Assembly: GCA_965219685.1 (NCBI GenBank)
Contig: CBDCOH010000002.1
Coordinates: forward strand, 2,112,001-2,176,000
DNA length: 64,000 nt
Reading direction: 5' to 3'
From: Candidatus Spongiisociaceae bacterium
Lineage (GTDB): Bacteria; Actinomycetota; Acidimicrobiia; Spongiisociales; Spongiisociaceae
A model generated the notes under the pieces. That model was not told where the DNA came from and searched no databases. It was given only the letters and a program-made list of their open reading frames with translations. The position numbers and the translations under genes are program-made. How positions within the stretch are numbered: the stretch's first letter is position 1; each line of letters opens with the position of its first letter. This document shows positions 9,303-52,933 of the stretch, in pieces.

Positions 9303-9305
9303 TAG
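8508..9305 (+). CDS. IS5-family DDE transposase, single ORF
   Basis: GCKWRGLP..FGNWHTIY, LDST, GRSRGGLTTKIH, ADRAY, Y(2)R(3)E(6)K motif YKRRNEVERLFRRIK. Confidence 0.95.
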   Translation: MEITQEQYQLIADAFPKQRGNVKVSNLDALNAMLHILEQGCKWRGLPKEFGNWHTIYMRFRRWAASGVLVRVFQRLQQEQLIDLEVLGLDSTTVKVHPDAAGALKKHGPQAIGRSRGGLTTKIHMVAADARTAIIYAISPGQDHDGPHGRELLEKLGSRKKKDTEAEGEQLQLFLVADRAYEGDNTRQLALALGYTPVIPPKTNRRHPWDYDRQIYKRRNEVERLFRRIKAYRRVFVRYDKLDIIFLAFITLALIHDTLKSVNTP

Positions 9306-12350: not shown

Positions 12351-13343
12351 TTAGGGCATGTACGAGCCGCTGTGGTCCAAAGAGCCCAGCAGGCGGCGGT
12401 ATGACATCGCCGCTGCATCCGGGACTTTCAGGTGGAGTTCCTGCCTCAGGTCCAGCGGTATCTCTTCGGGGCGTTGCGACTCGACGATGTCCCTGTCCTG
12501 CAGCAGCACGAACCTCTGGAAGTCGGCGACCGAATCATCGTCCTCGTCGAAAGAGTGGTCCCTCGCCCGCCAGCAGTAGACCCGGGTTCTGTTCGAGGAG
12601 ATTGGCGAGGTGATCATCGATATGTAGTCGTGCTCCCCCGGTCTGCTGTCCCATCCACCCTCTATGTGAGCAGTGAAAGGCAGGTGGAGGGTATAGGCGT
12701 AGTAGGAGTGGTTGCCCGCTCCCTTGTCACTAGCCTCCTCAAGGTCCTTGGGCATCGGCGGCCAGACCGTGTAGCTGATCGTGGAGCCTTCGGTCGTGAC
12801 GGTGTGGCGCGGTGTCACGGTGTTGTCACGGGTTCCGAGAATGCCGTCGTGTACCCAGGCGAAGTGGGACACATCGAGGAAGTTCTCGATCGCTCGACCA
12901 GCAGATGTCGACCAGACACCGTCGTAGACGAGCAAGGTCCGGAACCGGTGCCGGTCCCAAAGCCCATCGGGAAACGGCGGAACGGGTGCCGCCGGTTCAT
13001 CCAGACACACCCAGACCAGGTTGTATGCCTCGACCGCGCGATAGGCGGTCGTGCGGGCCTTCGGTGGAATCCGGGAACCTTCCGGCAACGACGGGATCCT
13101 GATGCAGCGGCCTGTCGGGTCATATCGCCAGCCGTGATAAGCACACGTGATGTTGCCATCCTCGACCCATCCGAGCGAGAGAGCGGTTCCCCGGTGGATG
13201 CACAGGTCCTTCAGCGCGACGATGCCGGACCCGGCCCGGAACAGGACGACTTGCTCGTCCAGCAGTCCCACCTGCACCGGTTTGGTAGTCACATCTCCGG
13301 CCCGTGCGACCGGGTGCCAGTAGTTGCGCAGTGTCGGGACCAA
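12351..13343 (-). CDS. Rieske non-heme iron oxygenase alpha subunit, NdmA/B/C- or VanA-like demethylase family (no. 1)
   Basis: CIH...CAYH Rieske ligands; ENFLDVSHFAWVH and QD mononuclear-iron ligands; ESQRPEEIPLDL..ELHL tail. Confidence 0.9.
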   Translation of the reverse strand: MVPTLRNYWHPVARAGDVTTKPVQVGLLDEQVVLFRAGSGIVALKDLCIHRGTALSLGWVEDGNITCAYHGWRYDPTGRCIRIPSLPEGSRIPPKARTTAYRAVEAYNLVWVCLDEPAAPVPPFPDGLWDRHRFRTLLVYDGVWSTSAGRAIENFLDVSHFAWVHDGILGTRDNTVTPRHTVTTEGSTISYTVWPPMPKDLEEASDKGAGNHSYYAYTLHLPFTAHIEGGWDSRPGEHDYISMITSPISSNRTRVYCWRARDHSFDEDDDSVADFQRFVLLQDRDIVESQRPEEIPLDLRQELHLKVPDAAAMSYRRLLGSLDHSGSYMP

Positions 13344-13573: not shown

Positions 13574-13903
13574 TCAGAGATCCCGAAGAACCGCGCGCAA
13601 CTCCGCCAGTGATAGGAAGAGGGCCGTCTGCTGCCCGCTCGCTGTGGTGTGATCACGGATCTCGAGGCTGCGAGTGTACGCGGACAGCGCGGACCGGAGA
13701 CGCCCGACCTCACTCGCAACCGCGTCGGGCCACTCGGTGAGTTCCTCCAGCGTCATACGGGCCTCTTCAAGGGCGGGAAGGGCCATGTCGAGCCCGACAC
13801 CCGGCGAGTCCCACCGGAGTTTGTAGACGCTGGCCTTGTAGATCTGGAGGTCGATGTCGGTCACCGCCGCCCATAGCAAAGCCTTGCTGCCCTCAGGGAT
13901 CAT
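13574..13903 (-). CDS. Hypothetical 109-aa helical protein downstream of UbiD
   Basis: GGGAGGG RBS shortly before ATG 13903, natural composition, co-oriented between UbiD and the Rieske gene. Confidence 0.6.
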   Translation of the reverse strand: MIPEGSKALLWAAVTDIDLQIYKASVYKLRWDSPGVGLDMALPALEEARMTLEELTEWPDAVASEVGRLRSALSAYTRSLEIRDHTTASGQQTALFLSLAELRAVLRDL

Positions 13904-13939: not shown

Positions 13940-15346
13940 TCATGACCTGTCCACCGACCGCCACTCGGTCAAGTAGTCCGACAGTTCCATGCCTTCCCAG
14001 ACCTCCCTGGGTACATCGGCGCGTTCCTCGAAGGGCGCCTCGACCGGCTTGGTGGCGTCGATCGCCCACTTGGTGTTCATGGTGTCCTTCTCCCAGCGGC
14101 TCCATATCGAGTAGGAGGCGGGGTCCAGCCGCGAGGTGGCGGACTCCGGGACGAAGAACGTGGAGCGGTCCGGCTGCGTCCGGGTCGCGATGGCCCACAA
14201 CACGTCGGCGTCGTTGTGAATGTCAACATCCTCGTCGACCACGACCGCCAGCTTCACGAAGGGATCGGACGACAGGGCGGCGAGAGCGGCCAGCTTGCCG
14301 GCTCCGTCGTACTCCTTGCGGATCCTGACGTAGGCGTGGAACCGGCATATCCCCGACATCGGCATGGCAACGTCGATGACGGACGGCACCGCGGCCTTGA
14401 CCCTTTTGTAGAGGACCGACTCCCGGCCGAGCCGACCGGTGAGGTTGTGCTCCGGGTGCGCCGCGAACAGATGGTGGAAGATCGCATCCTTGCGGTGGGT
14501 GATGGCGGTCACCTCCATCACGGGACTGGGCCGCTCGAGTCCGTAGTACCAGGTGAACTCCCCATATGGACCCTCACCCATACGCTGGTGAGGAAGGATC
14601 CGGCCTTCTATCACGACCTCGGCGTAGGCGGGGACCAGGACATCGACCGTCTTGGCCCTGGTGACCGCCAGCGGTTCCTGCAGGAGCCCGCCCATCACCT
14701 CGTACTCGTCCTCGCCGAAGGGGATCTTCGATTGGCATCCCAGCAGGCAGGCGGGGTGATGACCGATCCAGGTCACCGCTTCGAGCGGCTCGCCCCGTGC
14801 CTCGTACGGGCGATGGACCTGGCCGATGTGGGTGTGCTTCTCGTAGCTCATGCCCAACGTGTTGCGGGAGTGAACCATCATCCGGTATATGCCGGAGTTG
14901 AACTTGTCGGTTCCCGGGTGGCGAACCGTGGTGATACCCGCGCTGATGAACGGCCCGGAGTCCTTCCCGCAGTTGGTCACTATCGGGACCTCATGGAGGT
15001 TCACGTCGTCGGCCCCGATGACCACATCCTGGGCCGGCCCCGTATCGACCACCTCGTACGGGATGCGGGCATCTTCCCGATCGATATAGGCCTTCGTCAT
15101 CTCGGACGGGGTGGTCTCGAGCGCTTCGGCCAGCAGGGAGGCGCTGCCCAGCACGTTGGAGATGGTCCGCAGGTCCGATCCCTCGACCGACTCGAACAGC
15201 ACCACCGGGTAGCGGCCCTCCGACTGCAGCTTCCTCAGCACGCCGGGAAGTTCGTAGACCGGACTCACCGGGCGCGAGACACGAACCAACTCGGATGCGG
15301 CATTCGCTTCGACGCGCTTGAGGAAACTCCTCAGATCCTTGGCCAC
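13940..15346 (-). CDS. ubiD: UbiD-family prFMN-dependent decarboxylase (no. 1)
   Basis: KDLRSFL, NSGIYRM, EVVIEG, EGPYGEFTWYY, VVVDEDVDI, WAIATR, LDPAS, IDATKP. GTG start after GAGGAGG. Symbol denotes the family only. Confidence 0.93.
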   Translation of the reverse strand: MAKDLRSFLKRVEANAASELVRVSRPVSPVYELPGVLRKLQSEGRYPVVLFESVEGSDLRTISNVLGSASLLAEALETTPSEMTKAYIDREDARIPYEVVDTGPAQDVVIGADDVNLHEVPIVTNCGKDSGPFISAGITTVRHPGTDKFNSGIYRMMVHSRNTLGMSYEKHTHIGQVHRPYEARGEPLEAVTWIGHHPACLLGCQSKIPFGEDEYEVMGGLLQEPLAVTRAKTVDVLVPAYAEVVIEGRILPHQRMGEGPYGEFTWYYGLERPSPVMEVTAITHRKDAIFHHLFAAHPEHNLTGRLGRESVLYKRVKAAVPSVIDVAMPMSGICRFHAYVRIRKEYDGAGKLAALAALSSDPFVKLAVVVDEDVDIHNDADVLWAIATRTQPDRSTFFVPESATSRLDPASYSIWSRWEKDTMNTKWAIDATKPVEAPFEERADVPREVWEGMELSDYLTEWRSVDRS

Positions 15347-15565
15347 AGGACTCCCCTCCTCGTTCACAACTGCCCCATGAGACTAGCCACATGGGCGTTG
15401 CCGTCCGCGGCACGAACGCGGCCGTCCCTTCTATCGGGTTGCTGCGTGGCGATCCGGTCCGGACCGAAGCAACCCGCGCGGTCCAGGCCATAAGATGTCC
15501 CGGTACCGGGCACTGCGCCGCCGGCGGCGCGATCCCCCGCCCTCCCGCCGGCCTAGGAGACATGG

Positions 15566-16666
15566 ATGAACACCATCGAGAGCCGTAAGCACGAGCATGT
15601 GGAACTCGCCGTGTCCGGTGACTCCCAGAACCGTCGCTCCGCACTCTGGGAGGACGTACGTCTCGTGCCGGTCTCCGTACCCGACATCGGTCCCGCCGAC
15701 GTGGATCTCTCGGTTGACTTCCTCGGCCGGAGGCTGGCTACGCCTCTCGTGATCAGCGGAATGACCGGAGGCTACGCGCGGGCCCTCGAGATCAACCGTA
15801 ACCTGGCGGTCGCGGCCGAGAAGACCGGTCTCGCCATCGGCACGGGAAGCCAGCGGGCCGCACTGATGGACCCGGCCCTCGTCGAAACGTATTCGGTGGT
15901 GCGCGCTCATGCTCCGGGAGCGTTCGTTATCGGCAACATCGGCATGAGCCAGTTGATCCGCCAGGGCGGCGAACCCCCGATGGGACGGAGCCAGATCGAG
16001 CGTGCGGTGTCCATGATCGGCGCCGATGCGCTCGCCGTGCATCTCAACGCTGTCGAGGAACTCGTACAACCGGAAGGCGACAGGAACATGCGGAACCTGT
16101 CGGCCGGGATCGCCAGTGCCGTACGGTGGTCGCCGGTGCCGGTGATCGCCAAGGAGACAGGCGCCGGCATGGCGCGGGAGACGGCGCTCATGCTCGCCGA
16201 AGCTGGCGTCGCGGCCCTCGACGTGGGAGGCGCGGGCGGCACCAGCTTCGCCCGCATCGAGGCTCTTCGCGCCGACGCATTGGGGGACGCGACCGGTGCG
16301 AGGATCGGACGGACCTTCGCCGACTGGGGAGTCCCGACCACCCTCTCGATCATCGAGGCCGGATCCGCCGGACTGCCGCTGATCGGCACGGGAGGGGTTC
16401 GGAACGGGCTCCACGCCGCCAAGGCCCTGGCATTGGGCGCGTCGCTCGTGGGGATGGGCGGCCCGTTCATTCGAGCCGCCCTCGAAGGCCCCGAAGCCGT
16501 GATCGCGGAGGCACGCCTCGTACTCGAGGAGCTCCGGGTGGCCATGGTGCTGACGGGGGTCAGGGACGTTCGAGGACTGCGCGGCCTGGAACCGGTGTTG
16601 GTAGGGAGAGCCGCACAATGGCTCGCCGCGCGGGGCCGACCAGGTTCGAGAGGATCGAGACAGTGA
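15566..16666 (+). CDS. fni: Type-2 isopentenyl-diphosphate delta-isomerase (FMN-dependent)
   Basis: RKHEH, SGMTGG, GSQR, GNIG, HLN..EELVQPEGD, KETGAG, GAGGTSF, WGVPT, GGVRNG. Confidence 0.93.
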   Translation: MNTIESRKHEHVELAVSGDSQNRRSALWEDVRLVPVSVPDIGPADVDLSVDFLGRRLATPLVISGMTGGYARALEINRNLAVAAEKTGLAIGTGSQRAALMDPALVETYSVVRAHAPGAFVIGNIGMSQLIRQGGEPPMGRSQIERAVSMIGADALAVHLNAVEELVQPEGDRNMRNLSAGIASAVRWSPVPVIAKETGAGMARETALMLAEAGVAALDVGGAGGTSFARIEALRADALGDATGARIGRTFADWGVPTTLSIIEAGSAGLPLIGTGGVRNGLHAAKALALGASLVGMGGPFIRAALEGPEAVIAEARLVLEELRVAMVLTGVRDVRGLRGLEPVLVGRAAQWLAARGRPGSRGSRQ

Positions 16667-16690
16667 CCGACAGGAGAACGAGGAGGACGG

Positions 16691-17164
16691 ATGTCGCGTG
16701 TTGAAGGCTTAGAACTCGGTTCCGAGCTGGTATCGCTTCTCGACGGGAACGACCTTCACGGCAAGGTGGGTGAGACCATCCTGCTGCTGACGGTCAGCGA
16801 GACCGGATGGCCTCATCTGGCCATGCTGAGCGTGGGCGAGTTGCTCGCGGTAGCACCCGGCGAGGTGAGGATGGCGCTCTGGAAAGGAACCCGGACCGGT
16901 GACAACCTGCGCCGCACCTCGCAGGGGACGCTGGCGCTGGTTCATGGAGGCGCCGGCCACTACGTCGAGCTGCAAGTTACGGACTCAGGCCGCCTCGAAG
17001 CCGGCCCCATGACCCTCGACTACTTCTCTTGCAAGGTCGCCCGGGTGCTCACCGACGTGGTTGGCTACGCGACCCTCACCAGCGGGATCCGCTTCGACCT
17101 TCCCCGGCAGGACGAGGTGGTCTCCCGGTGGGAGCGGACCGTGGAGGCGATGCGGGCACTGTGA
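16691..17164 (+). CDS. PNPOx-like FMN-binding protein, YclD/PhdC-like prFMN maturase candidate
   Basis: TVSETGWPHLAMLSVGE, RMALWKGTRTGDNLRR, YATLTSGIRF, EVVSRWERT resemble B. subtilis YclD as recalled. Co-oriented directly after fni, divergent from UbiD. Confidence 0.75.
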   Translation: MSRVEGLELGSELVSLLDGNDLHGKVGETILLLTVSETGWPHLAMLSVGELLAVAPGEVRMALWKGTRTGDNLRRTSQGTLALVHGGAGHYVELQVTDSGRLEAGPMTLDYFSCKVARVLTDVVGYATLTSGIRFDLPRQDEVVSRWERTVEAMRAL

Positions 17165-17224: not shown

Positions 17225-17259
17225 CCGACCACCGACTATCAACTATCAACTATCAAGCA
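17225..17259 (-). repeat. Heptamer repeat tract overlapping the ATPase stop
   Basis: Plus strand CCGACCA CCGACTA TCAACTA TCAACTA TCAAGCA. Confidence 0.75.
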
Positions 17260-18028
17260 ACCCCGCCCTGATCTCGTTGATCAGACGGAAGAACCGGTCG
17301 TCCTCGCGAGTCCGAGCATCTCTAGGATGCGGGAGATCGATGAGCTTGTCGACGACTATCCGTCCGGGCCGTGGGCTCATCACGAGTACCCGGTTCGAAA
17401 GAAACACGGCCTCGGGGATCGAGTGGGTGATGAACAGGATGGTGGTGTGGGTGCTCTCCCAGATCCGCTGCAGTTCCGCATTCATCCGTTCTCTGGTCAG
17501 TTCGTCCAGAGCGCCGAAGGGCTCATCCATCAGGAGGATGTCGGGATTGAACGACAGGGCCCTGGCGATTGACACCCGCTGCTGCATGCCGCCCGAGAGT
17601 TGCCAGGGACTCCGGCGGGCGAAGTCCTGGAGCCCGACCAACTCCAGCATCTCGGCGGCGCGCCGGCGGCGATCGGCCTTGCGGACACCCGTCACCTCGA
17701 GGGGGAGTTCCACGTTGCGGCGGACCGAGCGCCATGCATAGAGGACCGGGTTCTGGAAGACCACCCCTATAGCCCTCTCCTGCCTGGCCTCCCGGGCGCT
17801 CTGGCCGGTCACACTGATCGAGCCGGACGAGGGTGGCAAAAGGTCGGCTATGAGCCTGAGCATGGTCGACTTGCCACATCCGGAAGGGCCGACGATCGAG
17901 ACGAACTCGTTCTGGCCGACCGAGAACGAGATGTCCTTCACCGCGACTACGGCGTCTGCCGTGGCCCCGAAGCGTTTGGTGACATCCTGCACTTCGATCG
18001 CGTTGACCGCGGTCCTGAGTGTGGCCAT
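17246..18028 (-). CDS. NitT/TauT (SsuB/TauB-like) ABC ATP-binding protein
   Basis: GPSGCGKST, VFQNP.LY.W, LSGGMQQR, MDEPFGALD, THSIPEAVFLS, SPRPGRI. Confidence 0.93.
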   Translation of the reverse strand: MATLRTAVNAIEVQDVTKRFGATADAVVAVKDISFSVGQNEFVSIVGPSGCGKSTMLRLIADLLPPSSGSISVTGQSAREARQERAIGVVFQNPVLYAWRSVRRNVELPLEVTGVRKADRRRRAAEMLELVGLQDFARRSPWQLSGGMQQRVSIARALSFNPDILLMDEPFGALDELTRERMNAELQRIWESTHTTILFITHSIPEAVFLSNRVLVMSPRPGRIVVDKLIDLPHPRDARTREDDRFFRLINEIRAGLLDS

Positions 18029-18163
18029 CGGCCCATCCTAGATGGCATGGGTGCGCGCAGTCGGGGCCCCAGCCATCGGGTACCGTGCTGACCGGTAGCA
18101 TCACTGCTGGCGGTCACCGGCTCGACGATGTTTCGATGGCCAACAGTCACAACGGAGAATCCC

Positions 18164-19056: not shown

Positions 19057-20424
19057 TCACCGCATTCCCAGCCATTGCGACCAGTCCGGAACCCGGTCGA
19101 CGCCCGGGATCTCCACCACTTCGGCGAAGTCCGCTCCGTAGGGGATCGTGGCGTCGATACCCATCAGCGACGACCCGAACTTGCTGGGCGCGGACGGGTC
19201 GAGCTGGCCTCCGGCCGCTCTCGGGATGATGATCACGTCATCGGCCGGCTGGGAACGCGTGAGCACCGCCCACCAGACCTTGGCGGGGTCGTAGATGTCG
19301 ATGTCGTCGTCCACGACGATCACGACCTTCGGGTGGGCAACGCTGCCGAGGGCTGTCAACAGCACGTTCTTCGCCTGGTTGACGTACCGCTGCTTCATGC
19401 TGATCACCGCGAGGAACTCGGCGCCGCCCTCCGGTGCGTAGTGGACCCCGGTGATGTCCGGATAGACCTGCCTCATTGCCGTCAGGAGGTTCGCCTCCAT
19501 CGGGAGCAGCTTGAGGACGTGGTTCTCGGTCACCGGGATGCCGGTCAGGCCGGCCTGGAAGATCGGATCGGTGCGGGAGGTGATTGCGGTGCAGGTGAAC
19601 ACCGGCTCCGGTCCCCCGGGTCCCACGTAACCGGTCATCTCCCCGAACGGCCCCTCCTCGCGGCGCACGTGGGGTTCGAGGTATCCCTCGATGACCAACT
19701 CCGACGTGGCCGGAACCTCCAGATCGATCGTCCGGCACTTGACGAGTTCGACCGGCGATCCGTGGAGTCCCCCCGCGATGCCGAGCTCGTCCACGCCGAA
19801 GGGCACCCTGGCCTGGGTCGCCAGCTGGATCACCGGATCCACACCGATGGCGACCGCCACTTCCAGGCGCTGCCCGAGTTCCTCCGCATGGACCCGGATC
19901 GCGTCGAAGTCCGAGTAGGGGCTGACCGCTATGCCCATTTCGGTGGGCCCGTACAACTGCATCCGGTAGATACCGGCGTTGCGTGCCCCGCTGACCGGGT
20001 CCCTGGCGATCTCGACCCCGACGGTGATGAAGGGACCGGGGTCCTGCTTCGAGTAGGTGGGGATGGGCAGGGCGGTCAGGTCCACGTCATCGCCGGTGAC
20101 GACTACCTCGTGGCACGGACCGTCGTCGACCAGCACGGGGGGAATGGGATTCTCCAAGCCGTTGATGAACACCTCGAGCGCGTCGCCCGGCCCCGCGCAG
20201 CGGAGGGCGTGTACGGCCTTGGACGGCGAGCAGAAGACACCGGCCGCGACCCGCATGTCGCTCCCCTTGGCCTCGTCGAAGAGGAACGCCGGTCCGAGCA
20301 TGTCGGAACTCTTGCGGATGTACGCCGCTATCTCGTATAGCGGGTCGACGGGCGTGGGAACGTGTGCCAACTCGCCTCTGTCGGCCAGATAGCTCAGAAA
20401 CCCGCGCAGGTCCTTGTGCAGCAT
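19057..20424 (-). CDS. ubiD: UbiD-family prFMN-dependent decarboxylase (no. 2)
   Basis: KDLRGFL, NAGIYRMQ, ELVIEG, EEGPFGEMTGY, IVVDDDIDI, LDPS, GIDAT. Symbol denotes the family only. Confidence 0.93.
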   Translation of the reverse strand: MLHKDLRGFLSYLADRGELAHVPTPVDPLYEIAAYIRKSSDMLGPAFLFDEAKGSDMRVAAGVFCSPSKAVHALRCAGPGDALEVFINGLENPIPPVLVDDGPCHEVVVTGDDVDLTALPIPTYSKQDPGPFITVGVEIARDPVSGARNAGIYRMQLYGPTEMGIAVSPYSDFDAIRVHAEELGQRLEVAVAIGVDPVIQLATQARVPFGVDELGIAGGLHGSPVELVKCRTIDLEVPATSELVIEGYLEPHVRREEGPFGEMTGYVGPGGPEPVFTCTAITSRTDPIFQAGLTGIPVTENHVLKLLPMEANLLTAMRQVYPDITGVHYAPEGGAEFLAVISMKQRYVNQAKNVLLTALGSVAHPKVVIVVDDDIDIYDPAKVWWAVLTRSQPADDVIIIPRAAGGQLDPSAPSKFGSSLMGIDATIPYGADFAEVVEIPGVDRVPDWSQWLGMR

Positions 20425-20552: not shown

Positions 20553-22949
20553 CTAGTGTCGCAGCCGATCCGACGCCGGCCCATTCGCCTCGGCATCGCG
20601 AATGGCTCCCCAGACCCTCGCCGGGGTCATCGGGATCTCGTTGATGCGTACGCCGTAGTCGCGGAGCGCGTCCTCCACCGCGCTCACGACTGCGCCCAGC
20701 CCGCAGCCCAGCCCGGACTCCCCCGCACCCTTCGTCCCGAGCGGGGTGAAAGGAGACGGGTTCTCCTGGTGCTCGACCATGATTCGGGGCATCTCCACTG
20801 CGGTGGGGATCGTGTAGTCCATGAGGGTGGCCGTCTGTATCTGGCCGTTCTCGTCGTAGCTGATCTGCTCGTACAGTGCGCCGCCCAGAGTCTGGGCGGT
20901 CGCCCCGTGGAGATTCGCGTCCACCAGTAGCGGGTTCACGATGGTCCCCGCGTCCTCCACCAGGTAGTAGTCGAGAACCTCGATCATCCCCGTCTCCGGG
21001 TCGACGGCCACGACGCAGGCGGCGGTGGCGCTCGGCCAGGTCGGGTAGGCGTTGAAACGTCCCTGCGTGGCCGGCTGGTGGTAGATGTTCTCGGCGCGGT
21101 AATAGCGGGTGACCTCCAGCCCCGGCTCCACGTCCTCGGTGGCCGGGCCGTACGGCCTCCTGTACATCTCGTCGGCAACGTCGGAGACAAGGACCGATCG
21201 CCGGGGAGCGCCGATGACGCTTATGCGCCCGTCGACGGCCTCCAGGTCCTCGGAGGAGACCTCCAACATGTTCGCGGCGACCGCAAGCAGGCGGGCCTTC
21301 AAGTCTGCGGCCGCGTCGCCGACCACCGAGCCACCGATGATCACGCCCCGCGAGCTGTAGTTCCCGAGACCCCAGGGACAGATGACGGTGTCACCCTGCA
21401 CGACGCGCACATCCTCGAAACGGACCCCGAGACCGTCGGCGGCGATCTGGGCGAGGGCGGTCTCGTTGCCGTTGCCCGGCGATGTAATACCGCTCAGCAC
21501 GGTGACCTCCCCGGTCGGACCCACCCGTACGGTGGCGCCGTCGTAGGCCGAGATCATCACCGAGCCGGGCATCGCGCATCCCTCCGGGGTCAGTTCGTGG
21601 CCCAGCCCGATCCCGATGCAACGGCCCTCCTCACGTGCTGAGCGCCGGCGCTCTTCGAATCCCCGGTATCCGACCAGGTCCATAGCCGCCCGGAGGGTCG
21701 CGTGGTAGTCGCCGCTCCCGATGACTCCCCCTCCCTCACGAGCGAAGGGAAACTCGTCCGCCCGGAGGAAGTTGCGCATTCGCACCTCGCCGCGGTCCAG
21801 GCCGGTCGCCCTGGCCACTTCGTCCATCACCCGCTCGAGCCAGAGATTGGCGATGTCCTTGCCGAACCCCCGGTAGGAGTTCCACGGCGTCTTGTTGGTG
21901 ACCACCGTCTTCAGCCGGACGCGGCTGTTGGGAATCCGGTAGGGACCCGGGATCAGGCCGCTGGCAGCAAAGGTCATGCCCCAACCGACCAGGCTGGTCG
22001 GTGCACCCACATCGGCGACAATCCGCACGTCCACGCCGGACACCACACCCTGTTCGTCGTAGCCGGCCCTGAGCCGCGCCGTCATCTCCCGGGCGTGACC
22101 GATGGAGATGAAGTGCTCGTCCCGCGACTCGATCCACTTGACCGACCGGCGTAGCTTGAGGGCCAGATACGCGATGAGCGGCTCCTCCTGGAAGGTAGGT
22201 TGCTTGAGGCCGAAGGCCCCGCCCACCTGGGGCTGGATCACCCTTATTCGGGACTCGGGAACTCGCAGCGTCTGGGAGAGGTAGACGCGCAGGGGATGCG
22301 GGTTCTGGGTCGAGTTCCACAGTGTGAGGGTCTCCCGTTTCCGGTCGAAGGCGGCGACCAGACCGCGCGGCTCGATGGGCACCCCCGTACCGCGATGGGC
22401 GATGACCTCGGTCTCGACCACGCCGTACGCCTCGGATAGCGCGAGCGCGGCGTCACCCACCTTGAGATCCCGCCTGACCAACACGTTGGTGCCCCAGTCC
22501 GGCTCGACGAGGGGCGCTCCGGGCTCGAGCGCCACCCGGATGTCGGTTACAGCCGGAAGGGGCTCGTATTCGACGTTGATGTGCCCGAGGGCCAGGTTGG
22601 CGGTGTGTTTGGTGTCGGCCACGACCGCGGCCACCGCCTCGCCGACGTAGCGGGCACGGTCGACGCACAACGCGCGCCACTCGACTTGGTGGGCACCGAT
22701 CGCAGCCGTGTCCCAGCCCTGCGGGATCGGATTCGTGTTCTCGGCGATCTCGCCGCCGGTGACCACGGCCACGACGCCCGGGAGGGCCTCGGCCCGCGAC
22801 GTGTCGATGGACTTTATGCGAGCATGCGCGTGCGGGCTCCGGAGCACCGCCATGAAGCACATGTCGCCACCCGGACGGACATCGTCCACGTAGGTGCCCC
22901 GACCCATGACCAGAGTCCGGTTGGTGCGACCTGGGTAGCGCTTGCCCAC
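20553..22949 (-). CDS. Xanthine dehydrogenase/CoxL-family molybdopterin large subunit (orphan no. 1)
   Basis: LRSPHAHA, GGAFGLK, SYRGFGK active-site loop, YSSRG, KGAGESG catalytic Glu. True start may be CTG at 22976. Confidence 0.92.
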   Translation of the reverse strand: MGKRYPGRTNRTLVMGRGTYVDDVRPGGDMCFMAVLRSPHAHARIKSIDTSRAEALPGVVAVVTGGEIAENTNPIPQGWDTAAIGAHQVEWRALCVDRARYVGEAVAAVVADTKHTANLALGHINVEYEPLPAVTDIRVALEPGAPLVEPDWGTNVLVRRDLKVGDAALALSEAYGVVETEVIAHRGTGVPIEPRGLVAAFDRKRETLTLWNSTQNPHPLRVYLSQTLRVPESRIRVIQPQVGGAFGLKQPTFQEEPLIAYLALKLRRSVKWIESRDEHFISIGHAREMTARLRAGYDEQGVVSGVDVRIVADVGAPTSLVGWGMTFAASGLIPGPYRIPNSRVRLKTVVTNKTPWNSYRGFGKDIANLWLERVMDEVARATGLDRGEVRMRNFLRADEFPFAREGGGVIGSGDYHATLRAAMDLVGYRGFEERRRSAREEGRCIGIGLGHELTPEGCAMPGSVMISAYDGATVRVGPTGEVTVLSGITSPGNGNETALAQIAADGLGVRFEDVRVVQGDTVICPWGLGNYSSRGVIIGGSVVGDAAADLKARLLAVAANMLEVSSEDLEAVDGRISVIGAPRRSVLVSDVADEMYRRPYGPATEDVEPGLEVTRYYRAENIYHQPATQGRFNAYPTWPSATAACVVAVDPETGMIEVLDYYLVEDAGTIVNPLLVDANLHGATAQTLGGALYEQISYDENGQIQTATLMDYTIPTAVEMPRIMVEHQENPSPFTPLGTKGAGESGLGCGLGAVVSAVEDALRDYGVRINEIPMTPARVWGAIRDAEANGPASDRLRH

Positions 22950-22972
22950 ATGAGTATCCGGCCCGCCTGCAG

Positions 22973-25411
22973 TCAGCTTCGATCCCCCTCTTCACCGCAC
23001 GATCCAGACCCTGCCTCCCTGATTCCGTTCCACACGCGTCCGGGATTGAGCGGCAACTCCTCGAACCAGACCCCGCTATCGGGAAACGCGTTCTCGATCG
23101 CGTTGCAGACAGCGCCCAGCGCGGCTCCCAGCCCCGACTCTCCCACCCCTTTCACGCCCAGCGGCGTGAAAGGGGAAGGGGTGTGCTGGTGTCGGAGGTC
23201 GAAACGCGGAAGCTCCACCGCGGTGGGAATCGTGTAGTCCATCAGGTTCGCGGTCATCAACTGACCGTTGTCGTCGTATCGCACCTGCTCGTACATTACG
23301 CTCCCCAGCCCCTGGGCTATCCCCCCGTGCATGGTGGCGTCGGCCAGCAACGGATTGATGATGTTGCCGGCATCCTCGACCATGCAGTACCGGAGGATGG
23401 TCACCCCGCCCGTCTCCGCGTCGACCTCGACAACGCAGGCGGCCACACCATTGGGCCACGTCGGGTAGACCGAGAAGCGACCGTCCCGCTCCGGTTGGTG
23501 GTAGATGTTGGGGATCCGGAAGTAGCGGGTCGCCTCGAGGCCGGGCTCGACCAGGTCGGCATGCTCCTCGAACGCATGCCAGTACACACGCTCCACCACC
23601 TCCGAGAACCCGACCGAACGGTCCGGCTCCCCATCCACCCAGATCCTCCCGTCCGCGGCGGCCAGGTTCGCCGGCTCGGTAGCCAACATCGAGGCCGCGA
23701 CGACGTGCATCCTCTCCCTCAGTTCCCTGCCCGCTTCGAAGACGGCGGATCCGCCGATGATGATGCTCCGCGAGCTGTAATTGCCCAGCCCCCAGGGGCA
23801 GGACTCGGTGTCCCCCTGGACGACACTCACGAGGTCGACCTCGCATCCGAGAGTGTCGGCAGCTATCTGGGCCAGTGCGGTCTCGTTCCCGTTGCCGGGG
23901 GAGGTGACCCCGGTGAGGACCATCACCTCGCCGGTCGGCATCACGCGCACCGTGGCGCCGTCGTACCCGTTGTTGGTGATGCTTCCCGGCATGGCCACGC
24001 CCTCGGGGGTGAGTTCCTGGCCGATACCGAGTCCGATATACCGACCCTCCGCCCTAGCGGCCGATTGCAGCTGCGGGAACTCCGCGTAGCCGATCGACTC
24101 CAGCACCGTGTCGAGTGCCTGCTCGTAGGCCCCGCTGTCGAGCATCGCGCCGGACACCTGCGGGTAGGGGAAGGCGTGGCTTGGAACGAAGTTCCGGCGG
24201 CGGACATCCGGACTCGGGACTCGTAGATGCCGCGCCACCTTCTCGACCACCCGGTCCATCAGGAAGGATGCTATGTCCTTCCCGAATCCCCGGTAGGGAG
24301 TCCAGGGGCACTTGTTGGTGACAACGCTGGTGAGGCGGACCCTGACGTTCTCGATCTCGTACACGGTGGGGAGCGAGTACATGGTCACGTACGACATTCC
24401 CCAGCCCAGATATGAAGTGGGCGCCCCCACATCGGCGATGATGTCGACTGCGAGCGCGGTGATGTTTCCGTCCGGTTCGAACCCCACGCGGTACCGGCAT
24501 TCGGTCTCCCTGGCGTGGCCCCCAACCATGAAGCTCTCGGACCGGCTCTCCAGCCAACGTACCGGCCGTCGCAGGCGGCGAGCCGCGAACGCGACGATCA
24601 CCTCCTCCTGGGAGGTGGGCTGCTTGAGGCCGAACGCGCCGCCCACGTCGGTCTGTATGACCCGTATGGACGCCTCCCGCACCCCTAGGGACGCCGCCAG
24701 GAAGGTCTGGACCTGGTGGGGTTGCTGGGTCGATTCCCAGAAGGTGAGCAGGTCTGCGATCGGGTCGTACTCGGCCACGATGCCGCGGGGTTCCAGCGGC
24801 ACGCCGGTGAGGCGCTGGGACTTGACCCTTCCGGCGGCGGTGTGTCTTGCCTGCTCCATAGCGGCGTCGAAGTCCCCCGCCTCGAAGCCGTCGGACACCA
24901 GAACGTTGTCCGCCCACGAGGGTTCCACCTTCACCGCCCCGGGACGGAGGGCCTCGCCGGCCGAACTGATCGCGTCGAGGACTTCGTACTCGACCCCTAC
25001 CCTGCCTGCGGCGGATCTGGCGATATAGGGATCGGTTGCGACCACCGCGGCTACCGCTTCACCCACATACCGGACGCGACCCTGGGCCAGGGCGTACCAG
25101 TCGACGCCCCTGGCGCCTGCCTCGGCGGTGTCCCAACCCTCCGGGATCGGCCGCGTTCCTTCCGCCACGTCGGTGGGCAGGATCACGTCGACGACGCCAT
25201 CGATGGCCAATGCCTCCGATCCGTCGACCTTCAGGATCCGAGCGTGTGCATGAGGACTGCGCACCACCGAGAGGTGATGCATATCGGCCCGCCGCAGATC
25301 ACCCACATACTCTCCGTCACCACGAGCCAGCCGCCGGTTGTTGGCGCCTATCCGGGGAGTCCCCACCGCCCTCAGCACGGGCTGTCCTACGCCGTCGCCC
25401 ATCCTGGTCAT
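22973..25411 (-). CDS. Xanthine dehydrogenase/CoxL-family molybdopterin large subunit (orphan no. 2)
   Basis: VRSPHAHA, GGAFGLK, PYRGFGK, YSSRS, KGVGESG. Clear paralogue of 20553-22949. Start at 25411 or 25402. Confidence 0.92.
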   Translation of the reverse strand: MTRMGDGVGQPVLRAVGTPRIGANNRRLARGDGEYVGDLRRADMHHLSVVRSPHAHARILKVDGSEALAIDGVVDVILPTDVAEGTRPIPEGWDTAEAGARGVDWYALAQGRVRYVGEAVAAVVATDPYIARSAAGRVGVEYEVLDAISSAGEALRPGAVKVEPSWADNVLVSDGFEAGDFDAAMEQARHTAAGRVKSQRLTGVPLEPRGIVAEYDPIADLLTFWESTQQPHQVQTFLAASLGVREASIRVIQTDVGGAFGLKQPTSQEEVIVAFAARRLRRPVRWLESRSESFMVGGHARETECRYRVGFEPDGNITALAVDIIADVGAPTSYLGWGMSYVTMYSLPTVYEIENVRVRLTSVVTNKCPWTPYRGFGKDIASFLMDRVVEKVARHLRVPSPDVRRRNFVPSHAFPYPQVSGAMLDSGAYEQALDTVLESIGYAEFPQLQSAARAEGRYIGLGIGQELTPEGVAMPGSITNNGYDGATVRVMPTGEVMVLTGVTSPGNGNETALAQIAADTLGCEVDLVSVVQGDTESCPWGLGNYSSRSIIIGGSAVFEAGRELRERMHVVAASMLATEPANLAAADGRIWVDGEPDRSVGFSEVVERVYWHAFEEHADLVEPGLEATRYFRIPNIYHQPERDGRFSVYPTWPNGVAACVVEVDAETGGVTILRYCMVEDAGNIINPLLADATMHGGIAQGLGSVMYEQVRYDDNGQLMTANLMDYTIPTAVELPRFDLRHQHTPSPFTPLGVKGVGESGLGAALGAVCNAIENAFPDSGVWFEELPLNPGRVWNGIREAGSGSCGEEGDRS

Positions 25412-25522
25412 AGGAGACGGCCGGGATCCCGGTTTGGGGGGTGTCCGCGGACCGCTCCGGCTGCCGCGACAAGCGGCCCGTGCATCGACCATGTCAAGGC
25501 CGCCAACACCTTCGGCGTCGGC

Positions 25523-25546
25523 GGGAACGTGTCAGGGAACGTGTCA
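25523..25546. repeat. 12-bp direct repeat x2 in a divergent promoter region
   Basis: GGGAACGTGTCA GGGAACGTGTCA. Confidence 0.6.
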
Positions 25547-25686
25547 GGAGCGGGCCGGCACGAACCGGAAACGAACGGCATCGACGCATCCTATCCGATT
25601 GACGGCTGCGGATCGGGCTGGCCGGTACTGCTGTGATAGGTTGCAGACGGTAGCCACGGCGCCTTCCCGGACAGAGAGAGTTGCGG

Positions 25687-26562
25687 GTGTACCCTCCGAC
25701 CTTCAAGTACTTGCCCGTGCGGTCCGTCGAGGACGCCGTCGGGTCACTGAGCCGGTATGGCTACGAGGCGAAGATCCTGGCCGGAGGCCAGAGCCTGATA
25801 CCCATGATGAAGCTCCGGCTGGCGTCCCCTTCGGTTCTCGTCGACATCTCCCGCTTGCCGGACCTGTCTGCGATCAACGACACCGGCGATGATCTCCGGG
25901 TCGGAGCGATGGTGAGCGAGTCGGACCTCGAACACTCCACGGCGGTGGCGCGCTGGGCGGCCGGCCTCGTGGATACGAGCCGGGTCATCGCCGACCCGCT
26001 GGTCCGGAACCTGGCGACCGTTGGTGGGAACGTGGCGCACGGTGACCCCGCCAACGACCATCCCGCCGCGATGGTGGCGGTATCGGCGTCGTTCGTGCTG
26101 GTCGGGACGATGGGACCTCGGACCGTCCGCGCGGAGGACTTCTTCATCGACGTGTTCACCACCGCCCTCGAACCGGACGAGATGCTCACCGAGATCCGGA
26201 TACCCAAGCAGCGGGCCGGGACCGGGAGCGCCTACGTGAAGTACGAACGCCAGGTGGGCGACTACGCGGTGGCAGGAGCCGCCGTGTGCCTCCGCTCGAA
26301 GGACGGGTCGTCGATCGAGGAGGCAAGGGTCGCCCTCACCAACCTGGGACCGATCCCGGTTCGGGCCGCCGAGGCAGAGTCCCTCCTCGTAGGAGAGGTC
26401 GTCACCGCGGAGTTGTTCGAGCGGGCCGGGATGGCGGCCTCGGTCGCCGCCGAACCCTGGTCGGATCGGCGCGGATCGGCCGAGTACCGGCGCCGGGTCG
26501 CGGCGATGGTGACCCGGGACGCTCTCCGGAAGGCTTGGGTCAGGGCAGGGAACGGCCCATGA
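25687..26562 (+). CDS. Molybdenum hydroxylase FAD-binding medium subunit (CoxM-like)
   Basis: KILAGGQSLIPMMKLRLA, VRNLATVGGNVAHGDPAND, D.RGSAEYR. Confidence 0.93.
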   Translation: MYPPTFKYLPVRSVEDAVGSLSRYGYEAKILAGGQSLIPMMKLRLASPSVLVDISRLPDLSAINDTGDDLRVGAMVSESDLEHSTAVARWAAGLVDTSRVIADPLVRNLATVGGNVAHGDPANDHPAAMVAVSASFVLVGTMGPRTVRAEDFFIDVFTTALEPDEMLTEIRIPKQRAGTGSAYVKYERQVGDYAVAGAAVCLRSKDGSSIEEARVALTNLGPIPVRAAEAESLLVGEVVTAELFERAGMAASVAAEPWSDRRGSAEYRRRVAAMVTRDALRKAWVRAGNGP

Positions 26563-27107
26563 GTGAGAACGTGGGCGGTGATCTCCGCCAGACCATATCG
26601 ATGACCGCATCGACGACCATATCGACGACCGTATCGATGACCGTGAACGGAGAACCGGTCGAATCCTCAGCCGAGACCCGCAAGCTCCTCGCGCACTTCC
26701 TCCGCGAGGACCTGAACCTGGCGGGAGTGAGGATCGGGTGCGACACGACCAGCTGCGGTGCATGCGCGGTGTTGCTCGACGGGCGCGCCGTCAAGTCCTG
26801 CACGATGTTCGCTGTCCAGGCCGGCGGCAGGACCGTGACGACCATCGAAGGCATCGGCGCGCGGGACACCCTCCACCCGGTGCAGGCGGCGTTCCACGAG
26901 GAGCATGCCCTCCAGTGCGGTTTCTGCACGTCCGGCTTTGTGATGGCGACGCTGGAACTCCTGCGGAACACTCCGGATCCGTCGGAACACGAGATCCGCG
27001 AGGGCATCTCCGGCAACCTGTGCCGCTGCACAGGCTATGCCAACATCGTGAATGCGGTCCGGGCTACGGCCGAGGTCCTGCGACAAGGCGGGGCGGGTCG
27101 AGATTGA
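26559..27107 (+). CDS. Molybdenum hydroxylase 2x[2Fe-2S] small subunit (CoxS-like)
   Basis: GCDTTSCGAC...KSC and QCGFC...GNLCRCTGY. ATGA overlap with the medium subunit. Confidence 0.95.
   Translation: MSENVGGDLRQTISMTASTTISTTVSMTVNGEPVESSAETRKLLAHFLREDLNLAGVRIGCDTTSCGACAVLLDGRAVKSCTMFAVQAGGRTVTTIEGIGARDTLHPVQAAFHEEHALQCGFCTSGFVMATLELLRNTPDPSEHEIREGISGNLCRCTGYANIVNAVRATAEVLRQGGAGRD
26592..26639 (+). repeat. 12-bp tandem repeat x4 in the small-subunit N-terminus
   Basis: ACCATATCGATG ACCGCATCGACG ACCATATCGACG ACCGTATCGATG, encoding TISM TAST TIST TVSM. Confidence 0.8.
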
Positions 27108-29413
27108 GGCTCACCGGAACAGCTGTCCATAGGGTCGAAGACCGAGCCGTCCTCACGGGTCGGTCCAGATACGTCGACGACATCCGGATTCCGGGAACCC
27201 TCCACTGCTCGATCGTCCGGAGCCAGTTCGCCCGGGCCGACGTGACTTCGATCGACGTCTCCGATGCCGTTTCGACGCGGGACGTTGTGGCGGTGTTCAC
27301 CGCGGACGATCTCGGCGCCGCCAACGGTCCCGTCCTCCAGCCGACCTGGTTCCCTGCCCCGGAAGGTCTGCAGCAGCATGTAGACGTCATGTCCAGGCCC
27401 GAGTACACGCACCTCCTGGCGCCGGGACGGGTGCGCTACGTCGGCGAACCGGTGGCAATGGTGCTGGCGACGAATGCGTATGCAGCCGCCGACGGGGCCC
27501 GCAACGTCTATGTCGATTACGAACCCGGAGAGCCGGTCGTCGACGTCGATCAGTCCCGAGCACTCCTGGGGGGACCACTCAACGACGGGTGGCCCGACAA
27601 CCTCGCAGCCAGGTTCGTGATCCGCAAGGGAGACGTGGACCGCGCGTTCTCCCAGGCGGATCATGTGGTGAGCGGTACCTTCCGGACCGGTCGCCAGACC
27701 GGAACGCCCATCGAACCACGAGGCGTGCTCGCCGACCCCACCCGACCGGTGTTCACCGTCTGGTCGTCCAACCAGGCGCCCCACTGGCTCCGCGATGCCT
27801 TGGCGGACTACTTCGGGCGCGACCGCGACGAGATAAGGGTCGTGGCACCGGACGTGGGGGGCGGCTTCGGCATCAAGTCGATGGTGTATCCCGAAGAGTT
27901 GCTGATCCCGGAGATTGCCCGGCGCCTCGAGTCGCCGGTCAAATGGATCGAGACCCGCACCGAGAACTTCCTGGCGGCCGTTCATGCACGGGACCAGCGC
28001 CACCACATCGAACTCGCGCTGACCCGCGACGGTGAGTTCCTGGCGCTGCGGGACCGGTACACCACCGACGTCGGCGCTGCGAATCTGGAGAGCCTGGTGG
28101 TGCCCTACAACACGGCGGCCCACCTCCAGGGGAACTACCGGATCCCTGCCGCGCTGATCGTTCATGAGTCGTACGTGACGAACAAGTCGCCCCTCTCGGC
28201 CTACCGGGGTGCGGGCCGACCGGAGGCGGTCTTCGCGATGGAGCGGATCATCGACGTCGCATCTCGAGAACTGCGAATCGATCCCGCGGTGGTCAGGCAG
28301 AAGAACCTGATCACGGGGGACGAGATGCCCTACGACGCGGGTGTTCGCTACCGGGACGGCACGGCTCTCAGCCTGGACGGGGGCGACTACCGGGCCGTGT
28401 TCGACGAGGCGCTGCGGCGGGCCGACATTCCGGAGTGGCGTCGCGAACAGACCCGGGCCAGGAAGCAGGGTCGCCTCCTCGGCATCGGCTTCGCCAACTA
28501 CATCGAAGGGACCGGGATCGGACCCGCCGAGTTGGCGACTGCGACCTTGGAACCGGACGGGCAGGTCTCGGTCGTGGTCGGTCTCCCGTCGCAGGGGCAG
28601 GGCCACGCCACGATCCTCAGCCAGGTGGCAGCCGATGCTCTGGGGGTGCCCCTCGACAGCGTGCGCGTGAGGCAGGGCGATACGGGCCTGATGCCTACCG
28701 GCGCGGGAACCATCGCCAGCCGCACCGCGGTCGTGGTGGGCAACGCCGTCGCCGCGGCGGGCTCCGAACTCCGCGAGCAGGTGTTGGCGCGTGCCTCGGA
28801 ACTCCTCGAGGTCGACCCCGGCGACCTGACCGTCCAAGAAGGGCGAGTCTCTGTTGTCGGCGCTCCGTCTCGCTCGATCTCGCTCGCCGGTTGCGCCGAC
28901 CCTCTAGCCGGACCGCGCCTGGCCGCCACATCGGGATTCGATCCCGGACGGGCGACGTTCGCCTACGGAACGCATGTCGCGGTGGTCGAGGTCCATCCGG
29001 TCACCGGGCACGTGTCCGTCTTGAAATACGTGGTGGTCCACGACTGCGGACAGCTCATCAACCCCATGATCGTCGATGGTCAGGTGGTAGGTGGGGTAGC
29101 ACAGGGGATAGGTGCGGCGCTGTCCGAGGAGCTTGCCTACGACGAGAGCGGGCAACTCACCACCGCCAGCTTCCTCGACTACCAGATACCGCGCGCTACC
29201 GACATGCCGAGTCCTGAGGTCTATCACGTGGAGACGCCTTCCGAATTGAACCCGCTGGGCGTTCGTGGAGTCGGGGAGGCCGGCACCATCGGACCGCCCG
29301 CCGCGCTGGCAGGCGCGATCGAGGACGCGATCGGGCGCACGGACACAGTGATCGATCGCTGCCCGATGCCCCCGTCCTACGTGGCGGGGCTGATCGATCC
29401 CAGCGTCGCGTAG
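27104..29413 (+). CDS. Molybdenum hydroxylase large subunit with form-II CoxL-like AYRGAGR loop
   Basis: TTG start overlapping the small-subunit stop; GGGFGIK, AYRGAGRPEA, QGQGH, IASR, RGVGEAG. Confidence 0.92.
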   Translation: MRLTGTAVHRVEDRAVLTGRSRYVDDIRIPGTLHCSIVRSQFARADVTSIDVSDAVSTRDVVAVFTADDLGAANGPVLQPTWFPAPEGLQQHVDVMSRPEYTHLLAPGRVRYVGEPVAMVLATNAYAAADGARNVYVDYEPGEPVVDVDQSRALLGGPLNDGWPDNLAARFVIRKGDVDRAFSQADHVVSGTFRTGRQTGTPIEPRGVLADPTRPVFTVWSSNQAPHWLRDALADYFGRDRDEIRVVAPDVGGGFGIKSMVYPEELLIPEIARRLESPVKWIETRTENFLAAVHARDQRHHIELALTRDGEFLALRDRYTTDVGAANLESLVVPYNTAAHLQGNYRIPAALIVHESYVTNKSPLSAYRGAGRPEAVFAMERIIDVASRELRIDPAVVRQKNLITGDEMPYDAGVRYRDGTALSLDGGDYRAVFDEALRRADIPEWRREQTRARKQGRLLGIGFANYIEGTGIGPAELATATLEPDGQVSVVVGLPSQGQGHATILSQVAADALGVPLDSVRVRQGDTGLMPTGAGTIASRTAVVVGNAVAAAGSELREQVLARASELLEVDPGDLTVQEGRVSVVGAPSRSISLAGCADPLAGPRLAATSGFDPGRATFAYGTHVAVVEVHPVTGHVSVLKYVVVHDCGQLINPMIVDGQVVGGVAQGIGAALSEELAYDESGQLTTASFLDYQIPRATDMPSPEVYHVETPSELNPLGVRGVGEAGTIGPPAALAGAIEDAIGRTDTVIDRCPMPPSYVAGLIDPSVA

Positions 29414-29621: not shown

Positions 29622-29646
29622 CTAGTTATCAACTATCAACTATCAA
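29622..29646 (-). repeat. Heptamer repeat tract overlapping the UbiD stop
   Basis: Plus strand TTATCAA CTATCAA CTATCAA; minus strand reads TGA TAG TTG ATA GTT GAT AAC TAG. Confidence 0.7.
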
Positions 29647-30986
29647 ATAGTGAACTCGTCGGCGCCGGGAACCCGTACTACCTCCGGATAGGGAACACCG
29701 AACGGCCGGGTCGCGTCTACCCCCCACACCGAGATGACCTCCTTCTCGGGCGCGGAGGGATCGAGAGGGCCGCCGGCCACCCTCGGAACGATGATGGTGT
29801 CCTCCGCCGGTTGGCTGCGGGTCATGATGGCCCAGTTGACCATTTCGGTGTCGTAGACGTCTATGTCGTCGTCGACGACGATCACCAGCTTGGGCCGGGA
29901 CGAGTCACCGAGCGCGGTGAGGATCACGTGTCGAGCCTGGGCCTTGTAGCGCTGCTCGAGGGCGATCACCGCCGCATACTGGACGCCCCCCCAGTTCGGG
30001 TAGGCGACTGCGGTCACCTCCGGGAAGGTCTCCCGCAGCTTCTCGTACAGCGCGCTCTCGTAGGCGAACGACTTCAGAATATGGTTGTCGGTCGGGGGCA
30101 GGCCCGTCATCCCGGCCAGGAAAATCGGATCACGGCGGTGGGTGATCGCAGTCACCTCGATCACATGGTTCTCCTCGGCGGGCCCGTAGTAACCCGTGAA
30201 CTCGCCGAATGGTCCCTCCATCACCCGTTCGCCCGGGAGCACCCGACCCTCGATGACTATCTCGGCCGAGGCAGGCACCTCCAGGTCCACCGAGACGCAC
30301 TTGACGACATCCACCGGCTCGCCCCTGATACCCCCGGCCACCGTCATCTCGTTGACCCCTTGGGGAACTTTGGCCTGGGACGCATAGAGGAGAACCGGAT
30401 CGCAACCGTTGACGATCGCGACCTCCAAGGACTCACCGAGTCGTTCGGCCCGGGCCATGTGGGTCCCGAGGCCCTGGAAGGCATGCGACATCACCGACAT
30501 GCGGTTCCTGCCGGTGCGCATCACGCGATAGACGGAGGCGTTGACGGTCCGGTCGACCGGATCCTTGCTGACCTCTAGGGCCACAGTCACGTAGGGCCCG
30601 CCGTCCTTCTCCGAGTACACGGGCATGGGAAACGAGTGCAGATCGATGTCGCCGCCCGTGTGGACCACGTCCTGGCACTCACCCGACGCGACCAGGCGCG
30701 GTTCGATCGGATTCCTCAATCCGTGGGAGAACCTCGCGTTGCCCTCCGCCGCCGAGTCCACCTCCAACGCGAGGAGCGCCTTGGATCTGGTGGTGAAGAC
30801 GGCCCCGACCACCGGCATGTCATGGCCGGTGACGTTCTCGAACCACAGAGTGGGACCACCGAGGTCCGACATCTTCCTGATACCCGCCGCGATCTCGAAC
30901 CGCGTGTCAACGGGGCGCCTGACCCGGGCCAGATCTCCGGCTGCATCCAGCACCGCCAGAAACTCGCGGAGGTCATGGAAAGGCAT
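29643..30986 (-). CDS. ubiD: UbiD-family prFMN-dependent decarboxylase (no. 3)
   Basis: HDLREFL, NASVYRV, EIVIEG, MEGPFGEFTGYY, IVVDDDIDV, LDPS, GVDATRP. Closer to no. 2 than to no. 1. Symbol denotes the family only. Confidence 0.93.
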   Translation of the reverse strand: MPFHDLREFLAVLDAAGDLARVRRPVDTRFEIAAGIRKMSDLGGPTLWFENVTGHDMPVVGAVFTTRSKALLALEVDSAAEGNARFSHGLRNPIEPRLVASGECQDVVHTGGDIDLHSFPMPVYSEKDGGPYVTVALEVSKDPVDRTVNASVYRVMRTGRNRMSVMSHAFQGLGTHMARAERLGESLEVAIVNGCDPVLLYASQAKVPQGVNEMTVAGGIRGEPVDVVKCVSVDLEVPASAEIVIEGRVLPGERVMEGPFGEFTGYYGPAEENHVIEVTAITHRRDPIFLAGMTGLPPTDNHILKSFAYESALYEKLRETFPEVTAVAYPNWGGVQYAAVIALEQRYKAQARHVILTALGDSSRPKLVIVVDDDIDVYDTEMVNWAIMTRSQPAEDTIIVPRVAGGPLDPSAPEKEVISVWGVDATRPFGVPYPEVVRVPGADEFTI

Positions 30987-39228: not shown

Positions 39229-39429
39229 GTCTCCTCCCTTCCTGATTGCCTCCGGCTCCCCCTCGGCACGCGACGCTTCGATCGGGCTTCCCGACGATAG
39301 CGACCTATTCACGGCCCAACCCGAGAACGGCGGGGATGGGCAGATGCCTGAGCCGGTCCGGCATCGGCTCGCGTGATACGCTCGCGCAGGGTTGAAGCCC
39401 AGAGGTGCCGAGATCGGAGGGATGCTGCG

Positions 39430-40704: not shown

Positions 40705-41268
40705 GTGCGCAGGCTGATCGTCGGCATTTCCGGATCGAGCGGCGCCATATACGGCGTGAGGCTCGTCGAGGTGCTGTCCACCGTTCCAGATGTCGAGACG
40801 CATGTGATCGTCTCGTCGGGAGCCGAGGCAACCATCTCCTACGAGACTGGCCGTGACCCGGCGCGTGTCCACGCGATGGCGGACCATGTCTACGGCAATT
40901 CGAAGGTCGGCGCCGGCCCGGCGTCCGGAACCTTCGTTACCGACGGGATGATCGTGGCGCCATGCTCGATGAAGACGTTGAGCTCGATCGCCAACAGCTA
41001 CGGCAACACCCTCATAGCCAGAGCAGCCGACGTCTGCCTCAAGGAGCGCCGCAAACTGGTCCTGGTCACCCGTGAGACCCCCCTCCACCTGGGGCACCTG
41101 AGGTTGATGAGTTCGGTCACCGAGGCCGGAGCCGTGGTGCTCCCGCCGGTCCCCGGCTTCTACACCCGACCCGAGTCGGTGGCGGATATCGTCGACCACA
41201 CGGTGACCAAGATCCTCGACCAGTTCGGGATCGAGGCGAACCTCATCGAGAGATGGGCAGGGATCTAG
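40705..41268 (+). CDS. ubiX: Flavin prenyltransferase
   Basis: GISGSSG, ASGTF, APCSMKTL, RAADVCLKERRKLVLVTRETP, PPVPGFY. Confidence 0.95.
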   Translation: MRRLIVGISGSSGAIYGVRLVEVLSTVPDVETHVIVSSGAEATISYETGRDPARVHAMADHVYGNSKVGAGPASGTFVTDGMIVAPCSMKTLSSIANSYGNTLIARAADVCLKERRKLVLVTRETPLHLGHLRLMSSVTEAGAVVLPPVPGFYTRPESVADIVDHTVTKILDQFGIEANLIERWAGI

Positions 41269-43489: not shown

Positions 43490-43496
43490 CGGACCC

Positions 43497-44345: not shown

Positions 44346-44381
44346 TTGTACCTCAGGCGTTCGGAACCCTCGGGGCTAGAT

Positions 44382-52854: not shown

Positions 52855-52933
52855 GGTCGCACAGCCTCCTATGTCACCTGCCGGTCCCGGAACCACCTCG
52901 GGATCCAACCGCGGGCTCTCTCGTTCGACCTGG

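Follow-up and report, generated by a model that had tools for sequence, protein, structure and literature searches.

A type-2 IPP isomerase variant linked to prFMN genes in a Candidatus Spongiisociaceae bacterium and its relatives

The genes described here lie in a 64,000-nucleotide stretch of the genome of a Candidatus Spongiisociaceae bacterium, referred to as the window. The positions given in an earlier note on this DNA for ubiD1, fni, a maturase homologue, ubiD2, ubiD3 and ubiX were confirmed. ubiD1 (13940..15346, minus strand) encodes a prFMN-dependent decarboxylase, assigned from family matches and an intact catalytic motif; its open reading frame opens at 15367 and the likely start is 15346. 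The gene fni (15566..16666, plus strand) encodes a type-2 IPP isomerase (IDI-2) with Glu at residue 164, identified by TIGR02151 and by alignments to solved enzymes. It is followed after 24 nt by the gene for a PhdC/YclD-type prFMN maturase homologue of 157 aa (16691..17164, plus strand), which has its own ribosome-binding site and was recognised from its fold, Glu50 and an alignment of homologues. The two genes are one operon facing ubiD1, and the head-to-head arrangement described earlier, of fni and a PNPOx-like gene against the first ubiD, was borne out with a divergent intergenic region of 219 bp (15347..15565). ubiD2 (19057..20424, minus strand) and ubiD3 (29643..30986, minus strand) were assigned from family matches and motif, and ubiX (40705..41268, plus strand), the flavin prenyltransferase gene and the genome's only copy, from family matches. 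These three sit amid ABC transporters, Rieske oxygenases and molybdenum hydroxylases. No further isoprenoid gene was found among the 65 scanned of the window's 231 open reading frames of at least 90 aa, in agreement with the earlier claim. Directly 3' of ubiD1 lies a gene of 109 aa (13574..13903, minus strand) with no match in Pfam or NCBIfam; its best score in the Atlas comparison, 0.80, is a lead only. Copies 76-81% identical follow ubiD1 in G002, G003, G005 and G006, and the product is a possible UbiD accessory subunit.

The surroundings have the look of a large catabolic island for heterocycles or N/O-demethylation. Molybdenum-hydroxylase (CoxL/M-like) genes were assigned from family matches at 20553..29413, and four Rieske oxygenases (VanA_C) and four CoxL-like subunits are spread over 12351-13343, 39373-40404, 51796-53052, 62366-63358, 20553-29413 and 52934-56666; about ten close Rieske paralogues occur in the host genome. 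An ABC importer of the NMT1/THI5 type is split over the island, with the ATPase (17246-18028) adjoining the maturase gene and the binding protein and permeases (42698-45572) adjoining ubiX. This importer is kept in ubiX-less genomes and is a candidate for the uptake of substrate or flavin. An IS5-family transposase gene (8508-9305) and a DUF5655 gene (18128-19021) that some relatives share and that G005 has in split form look like recent insertions.

Five UbiDs are encoded in the host genome (96.7% complete, 5.9% contamination), and the catalytic set of Arg and Glu-x4-Glu/Asp was intact in all of them. The fourth copy, located 6.6 kb past the window (G000:C2:2182572-2183975), has Asp as the last catalytic acid. 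Among solved structures, 6H6V was nearest to both ubiD1 (E 1.6e-79) and ubiD2. The ubiX product scored as a member of the UbiX family and carries His174 at the donor-specificity position, which is position 181 in P. aeruginosa; His or Gln, not Phe, at this position was the criterion used for a DMAPP-using UbiX. His174 aligns with His164 of O157 UbiX, an enzyme that, according to the available text of its report, accepts both DMAP and DMAPP and gives a higher yield from DMAPP (PMC6541611). By analogy, the direct use of DMAPP that had been proposed for the window UbiX is plausible. Against this, the same text states that donor choice is not set by the residue alone (PMC6541611), and DMAP could come from the products of six Nudix genes located in other parts of the host genome. 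Dephosphorylation of DMAPP by Nudix enzymes and phosphorylation of prenol by ThiM are both prenyl-donor routes for UbiX (Wang 2018, as cited in the accessible part of PMC12359138).

Fni scored 363.8 bits against TIGR02151, for which the curated cut-off is 281.3. Comparison with 2ZRU and 120 homologues showed that the N-terminal Arg/Lys/His motif, Met-Thr-Gly-Gly, Ser..Arg, His-x-Asn and the Mg-binding Glu are kept, and the diphosphate contacts Arg7, Lys8, Ser95, Arg97, His159 and Glu165 are retained. Judged from its sequence, Fni is likely an FMNH2-dependent IPP/DMAPP isomerase. Glu164, a change absent from the earlier note, replaces a Gln found in all four solved IDI-2 enzymes aligned (Gln160 in Sulfolobus shibatae). 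That Gln, printed as Gln161, is counted among the substrate-contacting residues in the available part of an IDI-2 review (PMC3509576), and Fni, without it, is therefore classed as an IDI-2 variant. The equivalent residue was Gln in 72, Glu in 5, Met in 2 and His in 1 of 80 genome loci, and Glu in 98 of 121 sequences comprising the query and its nearest 120 homologues. In a FastTree phylogeny of 194 sequences, Glu was confined to one clade (support 0.998), and within this clade Gln recurs, including in a carotenoid-linked group (support 0.997). fni is under purifying selection (dN/dS ~0.12-0.16). Its closest named records are from Acidimicrobiia, one of them labelled Ca. Spongiisociaceae; the family name is our only reason for supposing a sponge habitat of the host.

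The maturase homologue has the PhdC fold with the C-terminal helix present, and its Glu50 corresponds to PhdC Glu47 (Glu in 116 of 117 homologues), so that the proposed identity of 16691-17164 as a PhdC/YclD homologue holds. The second PhdC glutamate, Glu136, is tentatively placed at Glu142 by an end register (model residue 157 set to residue 151 of 9SRG) and at Ser145 by an alternative register. Position 142 is Glu in 20 and Asp in 26 of the 117 homologues, and this glutamate appears not to be conserved in the subfamily. The protein is 41% identical over 88% to the product of a Peribacillus gene that shares an operon with ubiD and ubiX (order ubiD-ubiX-gene), and among 64 metagenome loci with a phdC-like gene ubiX was found in 19 and ubiD in 17. 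The homologue is predicted to oxidise the prFMN radical to the iminium form.

fni is the only IDI gene of either type in the host genome. IspH makes both IPP and DMAPP, mostly IPP; ispG and ispH are both found in the host, and its 96.7% complete genome gave no match to HMG-CoA reductase. Six of 101 relatives carry fni, as do 8 of 401 genomes of the class; type-1 idi occurred in 11 of the 101 relatives and in none of genus g1. ispH was present in all five genomes tested, with and without fni, and two relatives assembled as single contigs, G005 and G006, have ispH but no IDI of either type. Because the host has ispG and ispH, fni is rare and these two relatives have ispH without an IDI, fni was considered accessory rather than housekeeping. 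The objection foreseen earlier, that fni might be the sole housekeeping copy, is thus true in the letter as regards the sole copy; in substance it fails, for this copy does no housekeeping.

Searches led by fni gave eight distinct genomes with a Glu-type gene, and in all eight a prFMN gene was its direct neighbour. The neighbour was phdC-like in G000, G001, G002, G007 and G021, and ubiX, head-to-head, in G032, G268 and G329, which belong to three different families; seven of the eight genomes also have ubiX. At 75 non-Glu fni loci, a phdC-like gene or ubiX was the direct neighbour in two (Binatia), ubiX lay within 6 kb in one more and ubiD within 6 kb in three. In a blind class sample of 401 genomes, 23 of them with ubiX, all four genomes with Glu-type fni have ubiX, three head-to-head in three other families, and none of the four with Gln-type fni has it. 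Near the Gln-type loci L206 and L208 (two of four scanned with Pfam) lie carotenoid genes, namely phytoene synthase/desaturase-like ones and one with a lycopene cyclase domain, and L067, from an earlier locus set, has similar neighbours. fni was found at 9 of the 64 metagenome phdC-like loci, in several gene orders, and all seven with a readable motif are Glu-type; the other 55, many on short contigs, show no fni. The ubiX partners of Glu-type fni are 68-72% identical to the window ubiX, compared with 49-61% for other full-length ubiX. Glu-type fni and its ubiX partners look like one module, moved and rearranged, and the Glu-type counts are therefore not independent events. The UbiD beside fni-ubiX in G032 (L035:11902-13287) has a catalytic motif that is divergent in the alignment.

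Independent linkages exist in Binatia and in G069. Two Binatia (L089:5305-8049 and L120:5311-8099) have an operon of ubiX, a distant Gln-type fni, a second PNPOx-family gene, possibly a flavin reductase or second maturase, and a phdC-like gene; the Gln-type fni of this operon means that Glu is unnecessary for linkage to prFMN genes. In G069 (L036:6780-9659), ubiD, a HAD phosphatase and a type-1 idi form one run with ubiX 4 kb upstream, a possible route from IPP to DMAPP to DMAP by unrelated enzymes. At L113:10221-11173 a PAC_bac (PF21758) gene, which from its fold resemblance we take to be a likely LpdD-type chaperone, overlaps ubiX 3 kb from a fni-polyprenyl synthase pair.

It appears probable that the Glu-variant Fni turns IPP into extra DMAPP for UbiX and that the PhdC homologue matures prFMN for the five UbiDs, as a booster and not a required step. 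IPP from the MEP pathway would be converted to DMAPP by Fni while the catabolic island is active; since IspH supplies mostly IPP, an isomerase co-expressed with the island would raise DMAPP at high cofactor demand. UbiX would join DMAPP directly to FMNH2, as in O157 UbiX, the PhdC homologue would oxidise the resulting radical for the decarboxylases, and Glu164 would tune the isomerase activity rather than abolish it. fni likely serves prenyl donor supply rather than general lipid synthesis. Its recruitment to prFMN supply, as the earlier note had it, is favoured by the conserved linkage, by its disappearance together with ubiX from a single lineage and by the rarity of the gene (8 of 401), and is weakened by linkage counts that are not independent and by the 19 of 23 ubiX genomes of the class sample that have no fni. 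The description of the chain as 'self-contained' found no support, because it depends on outside sources for IPP and reduced FMN and can do without fni.

Changed chemistry of the Glu variant within the prFMN pathway is a tentative alternative that we consider unlikely. Fni would isomerise IP to DMAP, the extra carboxylate replacing the missing phosphate, or would mainly deliver FMNH2 to UbiX. The exchange of Gln for Glu strikes a residue listed as substrate-contacting in the available review text, where IDI-2 is also described as reducing its own FMN with NAD(P)H, which speaks for FMNH2 delivery (PMC3509576). The residue moreover tracks context, as the carotenoid-linked relatives nested in the Glu clade carry Gln. 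However, the remaining diphosphate contacts are retained, the partner UbiX has a DMAPP-compatible His, the Binatia make the same pairing with Gln, and no source of IP is evident.

It is rather improbable that fni encodes an ordinary isomerase for pool balancing and travels with a mobile catabolic island, its linkage to prFMN genes being inherited and not functional. Such a role would fit the sole IDI of the genome, Glu-type genes that are mostly of one clade, the retention of fni without ubiX in G021, and the IS5 transposase at 8508-9305. Yet the direct neighbour switches between ubiX and phdC-like and remains a prFMN gene in eight of eight genomes, the linkages in Binatia and G069 are independent, and fni has been lost along with ubiX 25 kb off while flanking genes were kept. 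In an RpoB tree of 27 genomes, which leaves out G008 and G012, the genomes concerned (G003, G005 and G006) group together in a single clade whose sister is G001. In all three, ubiD1-3 and the maturase gene remain syntenic, with fni cleanly missing and ubiX missing too; the joint loss represents a single lineage and two loci.

G021, with an intact fni (dN/dS ~0.13-0.16), a phdC-like gene and UbiD and no ubiX, would also fit a Glu-variant Fni acting as an alternative flavin prenyltransferase in its own right, with the dimethylallyl cation trapped on N5 of its FMN. In the available review text the IDI-2 substrate is placed ~3-4 Å from N5 of reduced FMN, and N5 adducts with analogues are described (PMC3509576). 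Such an activity is nevertheless very unlikely, as ubiX is present in seven of eight Glu-type genomes, head-to-head in three, and 18 other family members have UbiD but neither fni nor ubiX. The archaeal-type mevalonate pathway uses UbiD, UbiX and IDI-2, its UbiD-family member being anhydromevalonate-phosphate decarboxylase, and the presence of two aconitase-X genes in the host genome would fit it, but that fni, ubiD and ubiX form its lower part is scarcely credible: the aconitase-X genes lie >300 kb away, the UbiDs sit amid transporters, Rieske oxygenases and molybdenum hydroxylases, and the absence of HMG-CoA reductase from the 96.7% complete genome with ispG and ispH present largely excludes the route.

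In the host family, UbiD was found in 23 of 28 relatives and ubiX in only four. Nineteen of the 28 have one to five UbiD genes and no detectable ubiX, namely G003, G004, G005, G006, G010, G015, G018 and 12 of genus g7, where ubiX was found in none of the 12 (for example L046-L051 and L210-L213); several of these genomes are single contigs. The catalytic residues of UbiDs from ubiX-less genomes were intact in those aligned, and dN/dS of ubiD1 was ~0.02. It is suggested that these genomes obtain prFMN from outside or by another route of synthesis. A broader proposal is that Glu-type IDI-2 is a dedicated prFMN-pathway enzyme with altered chemistry (a monophosphate isomerase or a coupled DMAPP/FMNH2 donor), and that the few producers with fni and ubiX cross-feed prenylated flavin to ubiX-less UbiD relatives, some using the maturase to rescue a scavenged radical form; we give it a small chance of being correct.

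The phdABC operon of Mycolicibacterium fortuitum encodes the UbiD PhdA, the UbiX PhdB and the maturase PhdC (PMC13040415). By comparison, the window adds an IPP isomerase, ubiX lies 24 kb from the maturase gene, there are five UbiD clients in the genome, and the maturase homologue appears to be without the Glu-x-Trp motif at the expected register. Likeness to YclD of Priestia megaterium and vdcBC-linked Bacillaceae genes was judged through the Peribacillus gene (41%); on the end register, Glu142/Val144 would correspond to the YclD pattern, with Glu136 kept and Trp138 not. The 14 kb Peribacillus region has no isomerase, unlike the window. Fni keeps the flavin- and diphosphate-binding motifs of the IDI-2 of Sulfolobus shibatae (2ZRU) and Bacillus subtilis (1P0K), but differs in having Glu for Gln and a prFMN context instead of mevalonate or carotenoid genes. 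The chaperone LpdD, accessory to prFMN formation according to the available text of PMC10865409, serves prFMN as do the Nudix and ThiM routes, but these are moonlighting enzymes or a chaperone and not a cluster-linked isomerase. In the literature searched, which took in accessible parts of PMC10865409, PMC10807440 and PMC4930227 and few subscription papers, no report of an isomerase linked to ubiX or phdC or of the Glu variant was found. Each component belongs to a known family; the linkage of an isomerase to prFMN genes and the Glu variant appear to be new.

The supply of prenyl donor to UbiX has so far been explained by moonlighting enzymes. The Glu residue offers a marker by which IDI-2 enzymes that serve prFMN can be told from those that serve carotenoids. 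UbiD biocatalysis is held back by low prFMN loading, and a cassette of fni and the maturase gene is therefore a practical candidate for co-expression. The UbiD-rich, ubiX-less genomes raise the question of prFMN uptake from outside, which may outweigh the main finding.
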